Shown: one piece after another, positions 3,405 to 8,647 of the stretch
How the letters are laid out: every line of letters starts with the position of its first letter
Position numbering within the stretch: position 1 is the stretch's first letter
Assembly (NCBI GenBank): GCA_041584475.1
Contig: JBFHDX010000003.1
Coordinates: forward strand, 12,621-76,620
Origin: Alphaproteobacteria bacterium
GTDB lineage: Bacteria; Pseudomonadota; Alphaproteobacteria; UBA8366; JADFVY01
Direction: 5' to 3'
Length of the DNA stretch: 64,000 nt
Made by a program: the position numbers and the translations under genes
Notes under the pieces: model-generated
The model's database searches: none
Seen by the model: only the letters and a program-made list of their open reading frames with translations
Told to the model about the DNA's origin: nothing

Positions 3405-3480
3405 TGGTGGGCCCGGCAGGATTCGAACCTGCGACAACACCGTTATGAGCGGTGCGTTCTGACCGCTGAACTACGGGCCC
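3405..3480 (-). tRNA. tRNA with CAU anticodon: elongator tRNA-Met, or tRNA-Ile2 if C34 is lysidinylated
   Basis: The reverse complement GGGCCCGTAGTTCAGCGGTCAGAACGCACCGCTCATAACGGTGTTGTCGCAGGTTCGAATCCTGCCGGGCCCACCA folds as a 76-nt cloverleaf. It has a 7-bp acceptor stem, a GTTC/GAAC D stem, a CACCG/CGGTG anticodon stem with loop CTCATAA, a GGTTCGAATCC T arm and an encoded CCA. G1:C72 is paired, so it is not an initiator. Confidence 0.92.
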
Positions 3481-4878: not shown

Positions 4879-5754
4879 TCAGCGTCCGATCGAGACGATG
4901 CCGTTGCGCCAAAGCAGGCGACGTCGGGCGACGTCGAGCGTCATGAGATCCTCTCCCAGCGTGACCGGCCCCGAAAAGTCGCGCTGCACTTCGTCCAGCA
5001 GAGCCTCGCGATCGCAGTCCGGAGGCGCGAAGTGGGTCAGCGCCAGCCACTTTGCGCCTGCCCTCGCGGCGACCTTGCCGACATCGGACGAAAGCGTGTG
5101 GTAGCTGGCGACGGCCGCCACCGTTTCCGCGGTCCGCACGCCCGGCTGTATCGGCATTTCCCGGTGCACGAAGACCTCGTGCAGAAGCAGGTCGACATCC
5201 CGCGCAGCCTCGATCAGCGCCTCGCACGGCCGCGTATCGCCGGAGATCGCCAGCGTCGCCTCCTCGGTTTCGAAGATGAAACCGTAAGCGTGGCGGACCG
5301 GCTGATGCTCGACGGCAACGGTGGTGACGCGCATGTGACCGAAGGCGAGCCGTTCCTCTGCGCCGATCTCCTCAACCTCGAGCCGCAGCGCCTCGGTCGA
5401 GGGCCGTTTCTCGTGGGCGATGCGTTGATCGAGCTCCGCGCGCCACAACGCCATCATGCCATCGATATAGCGGCGCGTACCCGGCGGGCCGAAGACCGAT
5501 TGCGGCCGGTCGCGCCCCTGGTGCCAGGACGATACGACGAGCTGAAACAGGTCGACGATATGGTCGGAATGCAGGTGGGTCAGCAGAATCGCATCGATAT
5601 CGGCGCCGGACAGACCGGCCTGTACAAGCCGTTGCGTGATGCCCGATCCGCAGTCGACGAGCACCGCTGTCTCCCCGTGCCGCACCAGCTGTGCAGGTCC
5701 GAAGCGGTCGGCGTGCACGACGGGACAGCCGGTGCCGAGAAGTGTGAGCTGCAT
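4879..5754 (-). CDS. MBL-fold metallo-hydrolase (RNase Z / beta-lactamase-like)
   Basis: The track ORF runs to 5823. I prefer the ATG at 5754 (MQLTLLGTGCP), the usual N-terminus of this family. Metal motif LTHLHSDHIVD is present, with a later ISGDT and a terminal LTHF. Confidence 0.8.
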   Translation of the reverse strand: MQLTLLGTGCPVVHADRFGPAQLVRHGETAVLVDCGSGITQRLVQAGLSGADIDAILLTHLHSDHIVDLFQLVVSSWHQGRDRPQSVFGPPGTRRYIDGMMALWRAELDQRIAHEKRPSTEALRLEVEEIGAEERLAFGHMRVTTVAVEHQPVRHAYGFIFETEEATLAISGDTRPCEALIEAARDVDLLLHEVFVHREMPIQPGVRTAETVAAVASYHTLSSDVGKVAARAGAKWLALTHFAPPDCDREALLDEVQRDFSGPVTLGEDLMTLDVARRRLLWRNGIVSIGR

Positions 5755-5891
5755 CGCGCGAGTGTACCGGAAACCGACGGCACGCGCGCCCTGTTCGGTC
5801 GCTCCGCCGGCAACGGCCGGCATACGGCGGCCGCATGCGACGCAGCAGCACCGCCGCTGGCCGGCCGAACCCGCGCTTGTGACCGTCGATT

Positions 5892-5910
5892 TGTCTAGCT
5901 ACCATAGACA
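5892..5910. promoter_or_regulatory. Inverted repeat TGTCTA-N7-TAGACA within a possible TTGTGA-N17-TACCAT promoter upstream of the HTH/zinc-finger gene
   Basis: TGTCTA at 5892-5897 and TAGACA at 5905-5910. Candidate -35 is TTGTGA at 5877-5882 and candidate -10 is TACCAT at 5900-5905, about 30 nt upstream of the ATG at 5935. Confidence 0.3.
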
Positions 5911-5934
5911 GCGTGGACTTATGGACCCGGGCCG

Positions 5935-6495
5935 ATGCCGCTTGACCCGACATTGCTGGACGAGGTGCGCCGCGCCGAGGCCGCGGTGGCGGAGGGCGAA
6001 GGCGCGCTGGCCGACGCCAGGGCCGATTACCGCGTCGCCGTCAAGCGGCTGCACCAGGCGGGCGCGCCGCTGCGCGAGATCGCCGCGGCGCTGGGTCTGA
6101 GCCATCAGCGCGTGCACCAGATGGTCAGCAAGGTCGGCGGCGTATGGGCGCAGCCGTTGGCGCTGCTGTCGGGCGCCCTGCGCCGGCGGCGACTGACGTG
6201 CGCGTTCTGCCGGACGCCGGCCCGCGATGTCCGCAACCTGATCGCCGGGCCGCGGGTCCATATCTGCGATCGCTGCATCACCCTGGGCCGAGAGGTTGCC
6301 GATGGTCGACCGCGTGCCGTCGCAGGCGGCACTGCGCTCGCTGTTCTTGCCCCTGCGAAAGCCCAGCGCTGCTCGTTCTGCCGCAAGCTGGCGAAGGGCG
6401 ACCGGCGGATCGTCGCCGGCGCGGGCGCCCGCATCTGCAACGATTGCCTCGACTACTGCGCGCATATCGTCGAAGAGGAAGGCGCGGCGGGCTGA
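5935..6495 (+). CDS. HTH protein with two tandem ClpX-type C4 zinc-binding domains (function unknown)
   Basis: 186 aa. HTH-like segment is PLREIAAALGLSHQRVHQMV. Two copies of the ClpX N-terminal zinc-binding pattern CxxC...IAG...ICxxC are present: CAFCRTPARDVRNLIAGPRVHICDRC and CSFCRKLAKGDRRIVAGAGARICNDCLDYCAHIVEEE. Compare E. coli ClpX CSFCGK...[24 protein letters not shown], quoted from memory. Confidence 0.75.
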   Translation: MPLDPTLLDEVRRAEAAVAEGEGALADARADYRVAVKRLHQAGAPLREIAAALGLSHQRVHQMVSKVGGVWAQPLALLSGALRRRRLTCAFCRTPARDVRNLIAGPRVHICDRCITLGREVADGRPRAVAGGTALAVLAPAKAQRCSFCRKLAKGDRRIVAGAGARICNDCLDYCAHIVEEEGAAG

Positions 6496-6522: not shown

Positions 6523-6554
6523 GGCAACAAACGCGAGGGGCCCGAAGGCCCCTC
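6523..6554 (-). terminator. Intrinsic terminator of rpoD (also closes the convergent zinc-finger gene)
   Basis: 8-bp GC stem GAGGGGCC/GGCCCCTC at 6535-6554. On the minus-strand RNA the loop is UUCG and the trailing sequence is GCGUUUGUUGCC. It lies 27 nt after the rpoD stop. Confidence 0.6.

Positions 6555-6580: not shown

Positions 6581-8647
<2,067 letters not shown>

Follow-up and report, generated by a model that had tools for sequence, protein, structure and literature searches.

A candidate ClpC2-like autorepressor carrying two ClpX-type zinc-binding domains behind a helix-turn-helix

Within a 64,000-nucleotide stretch of alphaproteobacterial DNA (the window), a gene convergent with rpoD encodes a 186-residue protein that joins an N-terminal helix-turn-helix (HTH) domain to two copies of the zinc-binding domain (ZBD) found at the N-terminus of ClpX. 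We put at about even the chances that this protein is an autorepressor resembling mycobacterial ClpC2, with the N-domain of ClpX in place of that of ClpC1. ClpXP, a central protease in regulation, is also a drug target, and adaptors as well as many clients dock at the N-terminal zinc domain of ClpX. A free, self-regulated copy of this docking domain would add a new level at which the choice of ClpX clients is controlled. A search of the literature found no described protein combining an HTH with ClpX zinc domains. The gene, its control region and the domains of its product are located as follows.

5877-5882, + strand: -35-like hexamer TTGTGA (from sequence; the TTG is kept in three alphaproteobacterial relatives)
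5885-5889, no strand assigned: degenerate outer half-site GTCGA, 3 nt upstream of the core operator (alignment with relatives; a weak feature)
5892-5910, no strand assigned: operator TGTCTA-N7-TAGACA, its core GTCTA-N7-TAGAC spanning 5893-5909, to which the protein's own HTH is predicted to bind (sole match in the window; conserved in homologous loci)
5900-5905, + strand: -10-like hexamer TACCAT within the operator spacer (from sequence; 17-nt spacer to TTGTGA)
5914-5918, no strand assigned: degenerate outer half-site TGGAC, 4 nt downstream of the core operator (alignment; 1-nt gap versus relatives; a weak feature)
5935-6495, + strand: coding sequence, 186 aa plus stop (ORF list; full-length homologues)
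5935-6138, + strand: N-terminal DNA-binding domain, residues 1-68 (AlphaFold pLDDT 90-97; matches to phrog_686 and phrog_8245)
6100-6126, + strand: recognition helix S56-V64 (SHQRVHQMV) in the HTH of the N-terminal domain
6139-6195, + strand: basic linker, residues 69-87, predicted to be disordered (pLDDT <50 for 69-72 and 74-83)
6196-6300, + strand: zinc-binding domain 1, residues 88-122, Cys89/92/111/114 (best Pfam stretch, 88-121)
6301-6366, + strand: inter-domain segment, residues 123-144, a predicted β-hairpin (strands 127-130 and 133-137, pLDDT ~88)
6367-6489, + strand: zinc-binding domain 2, residues 145-185, Cys146/149/168/171 plus Cys175 as in ClpX (second Pfam stretch)
6535-6554, - strand: GC-rich hairpin between the convergent stop codons (terminator scan; - strand only, followed there by GCGTTTGTTG)

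The open reading frame begins with ATG, and the start codon at 5935 is fixed by conservation of the N-terminal sequence MPLDPxLL. Homologues that align over the full length are 38-99% identical to the window protein. All three peptide segments quoted in the original prediction were found in this product, at residues 45-64, 89-114 and 146-182. The Pfam zf-C4_ClpX profile (PF06689) matches it in two stretches (E 4.5e-24, 84.5 bits against a cut-off of 27), which upholds the proposal of two ClpX-type zinc domains. The cysteines C89, C92, C111, C114, C146, C149, C168 and C171 are invariant across 118 homologues, and a ninth cysteine is conserved beside these eight. The supposed lack of an AAA+ module was likewise borne out, as the chain stops at residue 186 and the NCBIfam ClpX models, which align residues 142-182 to ClpX residues 4-44, score 49-58 bits versus cut-offs of 359-371.

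Domains 1 and 2 are each 44-47% identical to the E. coli ClpX ZBD, including the KLIAGPxV(Y/H)ICDxC stretch, and the fifth cysteine of the ClpX helix is also present in domain 2. In domain 1, KLIAGPxVYICDxC represents nearly the whole ClpX consensus and extends well past the zinc ligands. A profile of the family matched the E. coli ClpX ZBD structures (1ovx, 2ds5) with E values of 4e-14 to 1e-13, while Foldseek superposed the AlphaFold model on 2ds6 with an rmsd of 0.6 Å over 37 residues (46% identity). The zinc domains are predicted to adopt the Cys4 treble-clef fold of the solved ClpX ZBD (PDB 1OVX, 2DS5-2DS8). The inter-domain hairpin was predicted again when the zinc-domain pair was modelled alone (residues 84-186, pTM 0.77, pLDDT 84.8), and the two domains are predicted to pack within one chain as a single compact body. 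The ClpX domain, in contrast, dimerises between subunits, and ClpX has neither two copies per chain nor a fused DNA-binding domain, while the window protein is without the AAA+ ATPase. In ClpX, the N-domain binds auxiliary tags of both substrates and adaptors (PMC12383707). The Bacillus subtilis anti-sigma factor CsfB (Gin) offers a comparison, being a stand-alone zinc treble-clef dimer that resembles the ClpX N-domain and acts in non-protease regulation; however, its identity to ClpX is ~20%, it has one zinc domain and no DNA-binding domain, and its targets are sigma factors (PMC5890618).

In the AlphaFold model, the N-terminal domain consists of a long helix (residues 5-41) followed by the HTH helices 46-53 and 57-68, with R47, A50, L53, S56, H57, Q58, R59 and Q62 invariant among the 118 homologues. 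This segment had been described as sigma-region-4/HTH-like. The HTH is confirmed. The profile search gave matches below threshold to HTH_23 (E 7.6e-5), Sigma70_r4 (E 0.012, 15.6 bits versus a cut-off of 24.1) and region 4 of TIGR02937 (sigma70-ECF; E 2.3e-4, model positions 114-156 of 165), and the pairing of sigma-70/ECF region 2 with region 4 was absent, the only sigma-type matches being these sub-threshold ones to region 4. The C-terminal module of some HicB antitoxins describes the HTH better than a sigma-factor fragment does, the domain matching both phrog_686 (HTH protein) and the C-terminus of phrog_8245 (HicB-like antitoxin). Cyanobacterial sigma-70 proteins with an accessory zf-C4_ClpX domain also fuse a ClpX-type zinc domain to a protein with a region-4-type HTH, but these are complete sigma factors with region 2, whereas the window protein has the region-4-like HTH only and a predicted palindromic operator (PMC11119718). 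A strong PDB match to 8vd6 ('CAP repeat') was set aside as uninformative, since this repeat protein contains an HTH-like unit of a generic kind. In the linker, most family members carry the motif GGSWWxRxWRxR, of which the window protein retains GGVW...RRRR only.

The palindrome at 5892-5910 and the overlapping TTGTGA-N17-TACCAT promoter are both present as originally quoted, although the promoter is weak (8/12 to consensus) and falls under the reporting threshold of the promoter scan. Allowing one mismatch, GTCTA-N7-TAGAC occurs once in the 64-kb window against 0.25 expected, and at least once in 24 of 100 shuffles, so that the palindrome in the window is by itself not significant and within chance. 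It is the comparison across homologous loci that renders it highly significant. With at most one mismatch allowed, the 150 nt upstream of the gene contain the motif in 74 of 76 family loci (exact in 65), as against 3 one-mismatch sites in 1.06 Mb of flanking sequence, an upstream enrichment of ~3500-fold. Loci bearing the operator, with the consensus (Y)GTCTA-N7-TAGAC(R), belong to Acidobacteriota, Actinomycetota, Myxococcota, Gemmatimonadota and Alphaproteobacteria. At the outer upstream half-site the relatives have GTCTA or GTCAA, giving the extended form GTCnA-N3-GTCTA-N7-TAGAC-N3-nAGAC. Two operator sites are found in 37 loci, usually with an offset of 23 bp. Across the family the operator overlaps the -35/-10 elements or abuts a leaderless start; the proximal site is located no more than 4 nt from the start codon in 34 loci, and in 32 of these a TAnnnT hexamer within the site indicates leaderless transcripts. 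The earlier idea of autoregulation thus gains strong support from an operator that is conserved across phyla in front of this gene and rare in the flanks. Judging from the position of the operator, the protein very probably represses rather than activates its own promoter.

The motif alone does not identify the binding protein, since the same tandem motif is used by BlaI/MecI-type repressors of low-GC bacteria, which have an unrelated fold. A scan of metagenomes for tandem operators, used as a regulon search, was dominated by such BlaI-type repressors (77 of 120 loci) and yielded no regulon. Searching metagenomes by the DNA motif alone also led to three hicA-hicB operons with tandem GTCTA-N7-TAGAC operators in front. 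The HicB-like proteins of these operons, whose own HicB/UPF0150 matches are weak (E 4e-4 to 5e-3), end in the same helix and LG(L/V)S(H/Y)QR HTH (LGLSHQRV in HicB-family antitoxins of this type), which argues that this module reads GTCTA-N7-TAGAC. The arrangement differs in that the HicB module is C-terminal, after the toxin-binding HicB/UPF0150 domain, while in the window protein it is N-terminal and followed by the zinc domains; a Pfam search of the window protein gave no match to HicB/UPF0150. HicB also has the hicA toxin gene adjacent, whereas no toxin gene is linked to the HTH/zinc-domain family, in which no conserved neighbour of 40 aa or more was found.

The closest parallel to this organisation is mycobacterial ClpC2 (Rv2667), in which an N-terminal domain is joined to a copy of the N-domain of ClpC1 and which acts as a repressor of its own promoter (PMC10030653; PMC13345244). 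One copy of its operator, CGTCAAC-n5-GTTGACG (that is, GTCAA-N7-TTGAC), precedes the ORF by 1-2 nt, another overlaps the -35/-10 elements, and the transcript is leaderless (PMC10030653; PMC13345244). Cyclomarin A, rufomycin and phosphoarginine release ClpC2, which functions as a sponge (PMC10030653; PMC13345244). We confirmed two GTCAA-N7-TTGAC sites upstream of one Mycobacterium clpC2 gene. As in the family loci, a site of clpC2 encloses the -10-like hexamer. Like ClpC2, the window protein is a small two-part protein with an N-terminal helical domain, a copy of a Clp unfoldase N-domain and no AAA+ module, encoded by a monocistronic, self-controlled gene; in both systems the operators are palindromes of two 5-bp half-sites spaced by 7 bp, in one or two copies that overlap the -35/-10 elements and abut a leaderless start. 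The differences lie in the sensor, which is a helical Clp_N repeat in ClpC2 and two ClpX-type zinc ribbons in the window protein, in the half-site (GTCAA versus GTCTA), and in the hosts, the window family occurring in Acidobacteriota, several Actinomycetota orders, Myxococcota and some Alphaproteobacteria, but not in mycobacteria.

A further likeness is provided by relatives with the same HTH (P0192, P0207, P0225, P0236, P0252 and P0263), in which a ClpC1-type Clp_N domain is located between the HTH and two ZBDs. The Clp_N domains of these hybrids match ClpC1 N-domain structures with E values of 1e-27 to 1e-36, and at least one hybrid has an exact GTCTA-N7-TAGAC operator. The window protein itself gave no match to Clp_N (PF02861).

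Similarity between the N-terminal domains of ClpC2 (residues 4-72) and the window family is marginal. An hhalign comparison placed the ClpC2 domain in register with the family HTH (probability 66%, E 5.5e-5, 48 columns) using a shallow ClpC2 alignment (Neff 1.2), and 8ADA, the ClpC2 N-terminal domain, was not among the matches of a PDB profile search; the two DNA-binding domains are thus no more than possible homologues. In addition, the authors of the ClpC2 study attributed DNA contact to the C-terminal rather than the N-terminal domain (PMC10030653), and the parallel with the window family may therefore be imperfect. Our comparison suggests that in ClpC2-type proteins the N-terminal domain is a candidate DNA-reading head, besides the Clp-like domain.

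If the window protein does work as a ClpC2-like autorepressor, the helix and HTH domain would bind YGTCTA-N7-TAGACR, presumably as a dimer, and because the palindrome covers the -10 region of its own promoter, the protein would keep its own synthesis low. The C-terminal zinc-ribbon body would be similar to the N-domain dimer that serves ClpX as a docking site for adaptors and some substrates, and could act as the sensor. A ligand of the ClpX N-domain that builds up, for instance the tail of an adaptor, a client with a degron or a foreign molecule directed at this domain, would bind the zinc-domain pair; the ligand-bound protein would leave the operator, more protein would be made, and the surplus would titrate the ligand away from ClpX. 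Ligand sensing, ligand-dependent release and the sponge effect are proposed here by analogy with ClpC2. The Clp_N hybrids, the ClpC2-like organisation and the predicted compact zinc-domain body lend indirect support to a decoy or sensor function; a decoy or anti-adaptor had originally been put forward as one option, beside a dimerisation scaffold and a zinc- or redox-responsive regulator. We know of no natural ligand specific for the ClpX zinc domain in the phyla of this family.

The ClpC2-like reading would extend the ClpC2 principle past mycobacteria and past ClpC, and as a decoy the protein would also be a resistance and sensing device against agents aimed at ClpX. We tentatively suggest that 'N-domain decoy repressors' are widespread in bacteria, self-repressing proteins with a copy of the docking domain of an essential unfoldase that sense and soak up molecules hijacking this domain, with ClpC2 and the window family as instances and the hybrids covering both unfoldases. 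Were this so, soil bacteria would meet undiscovered molecules directed at the ClpX zinc domain, whether natural products, phage proteins or endogenous signals, and the promoter at 5877-5934 and its homologues would be ready-made reporters for such molecules. A precise predicted operator and promoter are thereby supplied for reporter assays, with the caveat that the window has one operator and a promoter of weak consensus only.

Among other explanations, an ordinary autoregulated repressor fares best, though we consider it improbable at roughly one chance in five. Here the zinc ribbons would serve oligomerisation only, tetramers would form on adjacent operators, there would be no Clp link, and the real targets would be elsewhere in the genome. 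Such a role would suit the constitutive dimer formed by the ClpX ZBD and the different purpose to which the related treble-clef dimer of CsfB is put (PMC5890618), and ClpC2 itself binds DNA cooperatively, as higher oligomers (PMC13345244). Paired operators, at the fixed 23-bp offset, occur in half of the family's promoters, and the number of zinc domains varies from 2 to 5 among relatives. However, a ClpC1-type N-domain inserted in relatives is hard to square with mere glue, the ClpX consensus is kept in ZBD1 well past the zinc ligands, and AlphaFold packs both zinc domains on each other in one chain. No further operator sites were found in the 64-kb window, and no regulon emerged from the 1.06 Mb of flanks.

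Somewhat less probable still is an unstable regulator coupled to ClpXP, a substrate by virtue of an Ala-Ala or Leu-Ala C-terminus, of docking by pairing of its ZBDs with the ClpX N-domain, or both, whose level, and with it the activity of its own promoter, would report ClpXP capacity. The chain ends in -LA or -AA in 58 of 118 members (RLA in 32, RAA in 22) and stops exactly 9 residues after the last cysteine in 88 of the 118; a ClpXP signal has been suggested to reside in the C-terminal AA of another regulator, and the DNA-binding module is common to antitoxins, which are typically protease-labile. The C-terminal counts come from phylogenetically non-independent sequences, however, and in the window protein and its clade the last residues are -AAG, -AG or -AS instead.

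We regard as unlikely a zinc- or thiol-redox-responsive repressor, in which oxidation or loss of zinc would unfold the C-terminal half and alter DNA binding. Cys4 zinc sites serve as redox switches in other regulators, and the eight invariant zinc cysteines together with the conserved ninth would fit such a role. Against this, none of the lineages has a linked redox or metal gene, conservation reaches well past the cysteines, and the cysteine-free ClpC-type N-domain of the hybrids points to Clp-related ligands.

An orphan antitoxin or toxin-antitoxin remnant, its HicB-type domain kept and its zinc domains neutralising a toxin encoded elsewhere, would account for a DNA-binding module and operator shared with the three hicAB operons and for the patchy distribution (297 loci among 185,579 species genomes), but is very improbable given that no conserved neighbour of any size was found at 76-80 loci, that in the window a second gene would not fit ahead of the hairpin and rpoD, that synteny is stable in four alphaproteobacterial genomes, and that plasmids, phages and viral contigs gave no full-length copy.

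The neighbourhood was compared at two scales. ORFs of 80 aa or longer lying within 5 kb of one of 80 loci were all compared with one another, as were ORFs of 40-130 aa within 700 nt, and neither set gave a partner gene beyond lineage-level synteny. Two large recurring neighbour clusters were discarded as antisense ORFs of the HTH/zinc-domain gene itself. Searches of plasmids and phages by tblastn found no copy, matches in IMG/VR were confined to the zinc-domain region, and PADLOC gave no meaningful match to a defence system. In all, the family comprises at least 181 sequence clusters at 50% identity, from several phyla of soil bacteria; complete genomes with a member include Kutzneria sp. CA-103260 (NZ_CP073318.1) and Planotetraspora species.

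In the four alphaproteobacterial genomes, the conserved gene order is FAD oxidoreductase, MBL hydrolase, the HTH/zinc-domain gene, rpoD and dnaG. In the window, rpoD occupies 6581-8647 on the - strand. The hairpin at 6535-6554 had been taken as a terminator shared by the two genes; it does lie between them, but its T-tract is on the rpoD strand only, so that the earlier description is correct in part. The hairpin is an intrinsic terminator for rpoD and possibly acts as a barrier for the + strand gene.

The window gene encodes a 186-residue protein that contains all the peptide segments quoted in the original prediction. A Pfam search identified two zf-C4_ClpX domains (E 4.5e-24, 84.5 bits, against a cut-off of 27 bits), in agreement with the two ClpX-type zinc domains first proposed. 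Matches to the HTH families HTH_23, HTH_38 and Sigma70_r4 were all sub-threshold, the NCBIfam ClpX models matched over the first ~45 ClpX residues only, and the match to an NCBIfam ECF sigma model was limited to region 4 of that model. Searching 5.8 billion proteins gave 479 matches; among the best 120, nearly all are full-length relatives, about 150-200 aa long and 38-99% identical. When 1.84 billion cluster representatives were searched exhaustively with an HMM, 181 clusters were recovered at E <= 1e-30, and a scan of one genome per species yielded 297 confirmed family loci, in Acidobacteriota (many Vicinamibacterales), Actinomycetota (Streptosporangiaceae, Kutzneria, Saccharopolyspora, Planotetraspora, Nonomuraea and Crossiella), Myxococcota, Gemmatimonadota, Dormiibacterota, Vulcanimicrobiota and a few Alphaproteobacteria. 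Conservation of the cysteines had been proposed as a test of the zinc domains; all 8 zinc cysteines are invariant in an alignment of 118 family members, as are L102, G105 and P106 of zinc domain 1 and, in the HTH, R47, A50, L53 and S56-H57-Q58-R59-x-x-Q62. A ninth cysteine, C175, the counterpart of the ClpX helix cysteine, is nearly invariant. Compared with the solved zinc-binding domain of E. coli ClpX, the family profile gives a match at E about 1e-13, with the common consensus CxFCGxxxxEVxKLIAGPxVYICDxCV. Assignment of the family to ClpC2, ClpX, HicB or the sigma factors was rejected on membership tests.

AlphaFold, supplied with the 118-sequence alignment, modelled the window protein with a mean pLDDT of 85.8 and the following elements:

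Residues 5-41, long helix
Residues 46-53 and 57-68, HTH helices
Residues 69-83, basic linker, disordered
Residues 88-122, zinc domain 1
Residues 127-137, beta-hairpin, confidently predicted
Residues 146-185, zinc domain 2

Foldseek superimposed one zinc domain of the model on ClpX zinc-binding domain crystal structures with an rmsd of 0.6 A over 37 residues (46% identity), and found the HTH to resemble generic three-helix HTH domains (resolvase, Fis, LuxR-type, KorA/ArdK). When residues 84-186 were modelled alone the pTM was 0.77, which means that both zinc domains and the hairpin are predicted to hold together as a single rigid body, not as beads on a string. The linker between the HTH and zinc domain 1 (residues 69-87; 6139-6195), predicted to be disordered, carries an aromatic and basic GGSWWxRxWRxR motif in most family members, reduced to GGVW...RRRR in the window clade; the linker might serve as a DNA arm, as a degron or as an internal ligand.

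The window, of 67% G+C, holds the gene between a divergent MBL-fold hydrolase gene and convergent rpoD-dnaG, the ORF map bearing out the predicted convergence with rpoD:

3405-3480, minus strand, tRNA-Met (CAT), flanked by a periplasmic-binding-protein-like ORF and by the FAD oxidoreductase gene
4879-5823, minus strand, MBL-fold hydrolase gene, divergent from the window gene, the intergenic region with the operator being common to both
5935-6495, plus strand, coding sequence of the window protein (ATG start, 186 residues)
6535-6554, GC hairpin between the stop codons of the window gene and rpoD

The true start of the hydrolase is likely at the MQLTLLGTG motif near 5754. The hairpin, originally described as a terminator common to the window gene and rpoD, does lie between the two stop codons, but a T-rich run is found on the rpoD strand only. 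Three alphaproteobacterial metagenome-assembled genomes conserve the order FAD oxidoreductase, MBL hydrolase, window gene, rpoD, dnaG, with orthologues 68-75% identical to the window protein, and the pairing with the hydrolase is kept in all three relatives (loci L001, L002 and L003). A comparison of the neighbours of family loci found no partner gene, of ordinary size or small, conserved beyond close relatives. The product of rpoD (6581-8647, minus strand) contains, in its non-conserved region (window 7900-8080), a long acidic insert that is rich in Asp, Ala and Gly and includes short repeats; the L003 orthologue has a different acidic insert at the equivalent place.

Judged from the window alone, the inverted repeat TGTCTA-N7-TAGACA (5892-5910) is unremarkable: the single GTCTA-N7-TAGAC match compares with 0.25 expected, and at least one match occurred in 24 of 100 shuffles. 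The TTGTGA-N17-TACCAT promoter proposed alongside it was too weak for the promoter scan to report. What settles the matter is the comparison with homologous loci, 80 of which were picked from genomes by peptide patterns and thus without bias toward upstream DNA; the counts rest on the 76 in which a start codon could be placed. Within 150 nt upstream, 74 of these 76 loci have the operator with at most one mismatch, and an exact site lies upstream in 65. The rest of the loci DNA (1.06 Mb) holds only three one-mismatch sites, the chance level. The logo reads Y-GTCTA-N7-TAGAC-R, and 37 loci have two sites, most commonly offset by 23 bp. Acidobacteriota promoters usually run TTGACT, operator 1 (occupying the spacer), a TAnnnT hexamer, operator 2, Shine-Dalgarno and ATG. 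Many Actinomycetota have a proximal site that stops 2-3 nt short of the start codon, with a TAnnnT hexamer inside it in 32 of 34 such loci, which indicates that transcripts of these genes would be leaderless. The core operator of the window, like that of its three relatives, covers the -10 region and is flanked by extra half-sites, GTCnA-N3-GTCTA-N7-TAGAC-N3-nAGAC, partly degenerate (window 5885-5918; L001 about 2480-2515; L002 and L003 about 7950-7990). The half-sites are degenerate in the window itself, and the arrangement differs from the two separate sites of other phyla. With an operator lying across the promoter in nearly all members and an invariant recognition helix in the protein, the case for direct negative autoregulation is strong; the palindrome had already been said to fit autoregulation. 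We infer with high confidence that the window protein binds the palindrome as a dimer and thereby represses its own transcription.

The operator also occurs outside the family. Scanning metagenomes for two GTCTA-N7-TAGAC sites 3-20 nt apart gave at least 120 loci; among the 120 listed, 12 are family promoters, 3 are hicA-hicB operon promoters, 77 are BlaI/MecI-type repressor loci and 28 were left unassigned. Each hicAB operon (L088 491-1158, L139 7948-8698, L192 4322-4939) has two operators in its promoter, followed by a HicA-like toxin ORF and then a HicB/UPF0150-like protein that ends in a long helix and an HTH, LG(L/V)S(H/Y)QR(V/A)xQ, homologous to the family head (the N-terminal helix-HTH domain). 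Independently, the C-terminal end of phrog_8245 (a PHROG HicB-like antitoxin) matches window protein residues 26-66, and phrog_686 (a phage HTH family) matches residues 6-64. Helix-HTH module and operator thus travel jointly as a cassette with varied partner domains, a behaviour that identifies the N-terminal domain as the probable DNA-reading part. The 77 BlaI/MecI-type loci (within L083-L200), on low-GC, largely gut-derived contigs, encode winged-helix repressors of about 120 aa (Pfam Penicillinase_R), with tandem sites for example at L085 2352-2397, L100 8128-8173 and L165 5484-5531 and the promoter layout TTGACA, site 1, TAnnnT hexamer, site 2, RBS. An unrelated fold thus appears to use an identical operator and layout, and the motif alone does not identify the binding protein.

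A precedent is found in mycobacterial ClpC2, in which an N-terminal helical dimerisation domain is joined to a copy of the ClpC1 N-domain. ClpC2 shuts off its own gene, which is leaderless, through CGTCAAC-n5-GTTGACG sites (one 1-2 nt upstream of the ORF, a second over -35/-10), is freed by cyclomarin A and shields cells as a molecular sponge (PMC10030653). A 2026 preprint adds that higher oligomers bind the dual operators cooperatively, and that rufomycin and phosphoarginine free ClpC2 (PMC13345244). Rewritten as GTCAA-N7-TTGAC, the ClpC2 site has the geometry of the family operator and differs by one base per half-site. Upstream of a Mycobacterium clpC2 orthologue (L205 1453-1497) we found two such sites 28 bp apart, the proximal one containing TAATGT and ending 3 nt ahead of the ATG. 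The sequence that we took to be ClpC2 matched database entry P0270 at 99% identity. Using a shallow ClpC2 alignment, hhalign paired ClpC2 residues 32-79 with family residues 15-62, HTH in register (RRSGASWSDIGKSMGVTKQAAQK with HQAGAPLREIAAALGLSHQRVHQ; probability 66%, E 5.5e-5), which suggested that the two N-terminal domains may be homologous; 8ADA (ClpC2) was absent from the hits of a PDB profile search. Within P0270 residues 32-79, the HTH-like segment SWSDIGKSMGVTKQAAQK aligns with the family HTH. The published model has the C-terminal domain contact DNA (PMC10030653); on the cassette evidence, the ClpC2 operator may likewise be read by the N-terminal domain.

Variant architectures tie the family to the Clp unfoldases. 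The top matches of the exhaustive search include six with the head, a Clp_N domain and two zinc domains (P0192, P0207, P0225, P0236, P0252 and P0263), whose Clp_N part matches ClpC1 and ClpC N-domain structures (E 1e-27 to 1e-36). P0125 has the head and four zinc domains, P0238 four zinc domains only, and P0253 TPR repeats and five zinc domains. One DNA-binding head is thus joined to client-docking domains of both Clp unfoldases, never to their ATPase modules. Hybrid promoter L201 has an exact GTCTA-N7-TAGAC site, and L203 and L204 have GTCTA-N6-TTGAC or GTCTA-N6-TGGAC sites. The latter are intermediate between the half-sites of the family and of ClpC2.

By analogy with ClpC2, the zinc-domain pair may copy the ClpX docking site and bind whatever the ClpX N-domain binds; a ligand on the pair would weaken the grip on DNA, and the protein thereby induced would titrate that ligand. 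We regard this as an even prospect. Known ligands of the ClpX N-domain are auxiliary tags of substrates and adaptor proteins (PMC12383707). Since the partner must be present in phyla as distant as Acidobacteriota and Actinomycetota, a species-specific adaptor such as SspB is unlikely to be the general ligand; likelier candidates are ClpX itself, some generic class of degrons, or foreign molecules that target the ClpX N-domain. That the zinc domains serve purely for oligomerisation seems unlikely to us. Coupling to ClpXP through instability of the protein, which the family C-termini suggest, is rather doubtful. Of 118 C-termini, 58 are -LA or -AA (RLA 32, RAA 22) at a constant spacing from the last cysteine, and 88 end exactly 9 residues past it, resembling ssrA-like ClpX recognition tails; those of the window clade are instead -AAG or -AG (-GAAG in the window protein, 6472-6492). 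A zinc or thiol switch is improbable, and an orphan antitoxin we give scarcely any credence. All of these are compatible with autorepression.

No account of an HTH protein bearing ClpX-type zinc domains emerged from full-text literature searches; the only related mentions concerned zf-C4_ClpX, which cyanobacterial sigma factors carry as an accessory domain (PMC11119718), and the structural resemblance of CsfB to the ClpX zinc domain (PMC5890618). The 2026 preprint does not mention ClpX (PMC13345244), and the portion of the 2023 paper covered describes no ClpX-type counterpart of ClpC2 (PMC10030653). The family is thus probably a ClpX-type counterpart of ClpC2-type N-domain repressors, one that the literature searched does not describe. 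Plasmid and phage collections searched with the window protein gave no match, and PADLOC returned nothing meaningful. Many IMG/VR viral contigs (L206-L285), several >400 kb, encode ClpX-type zinc-domain sequences; almost all matches lie within query residues 70-186 and none covers the full protein. Their PHROG counterparts are phrog_6797 and phrog_12435.
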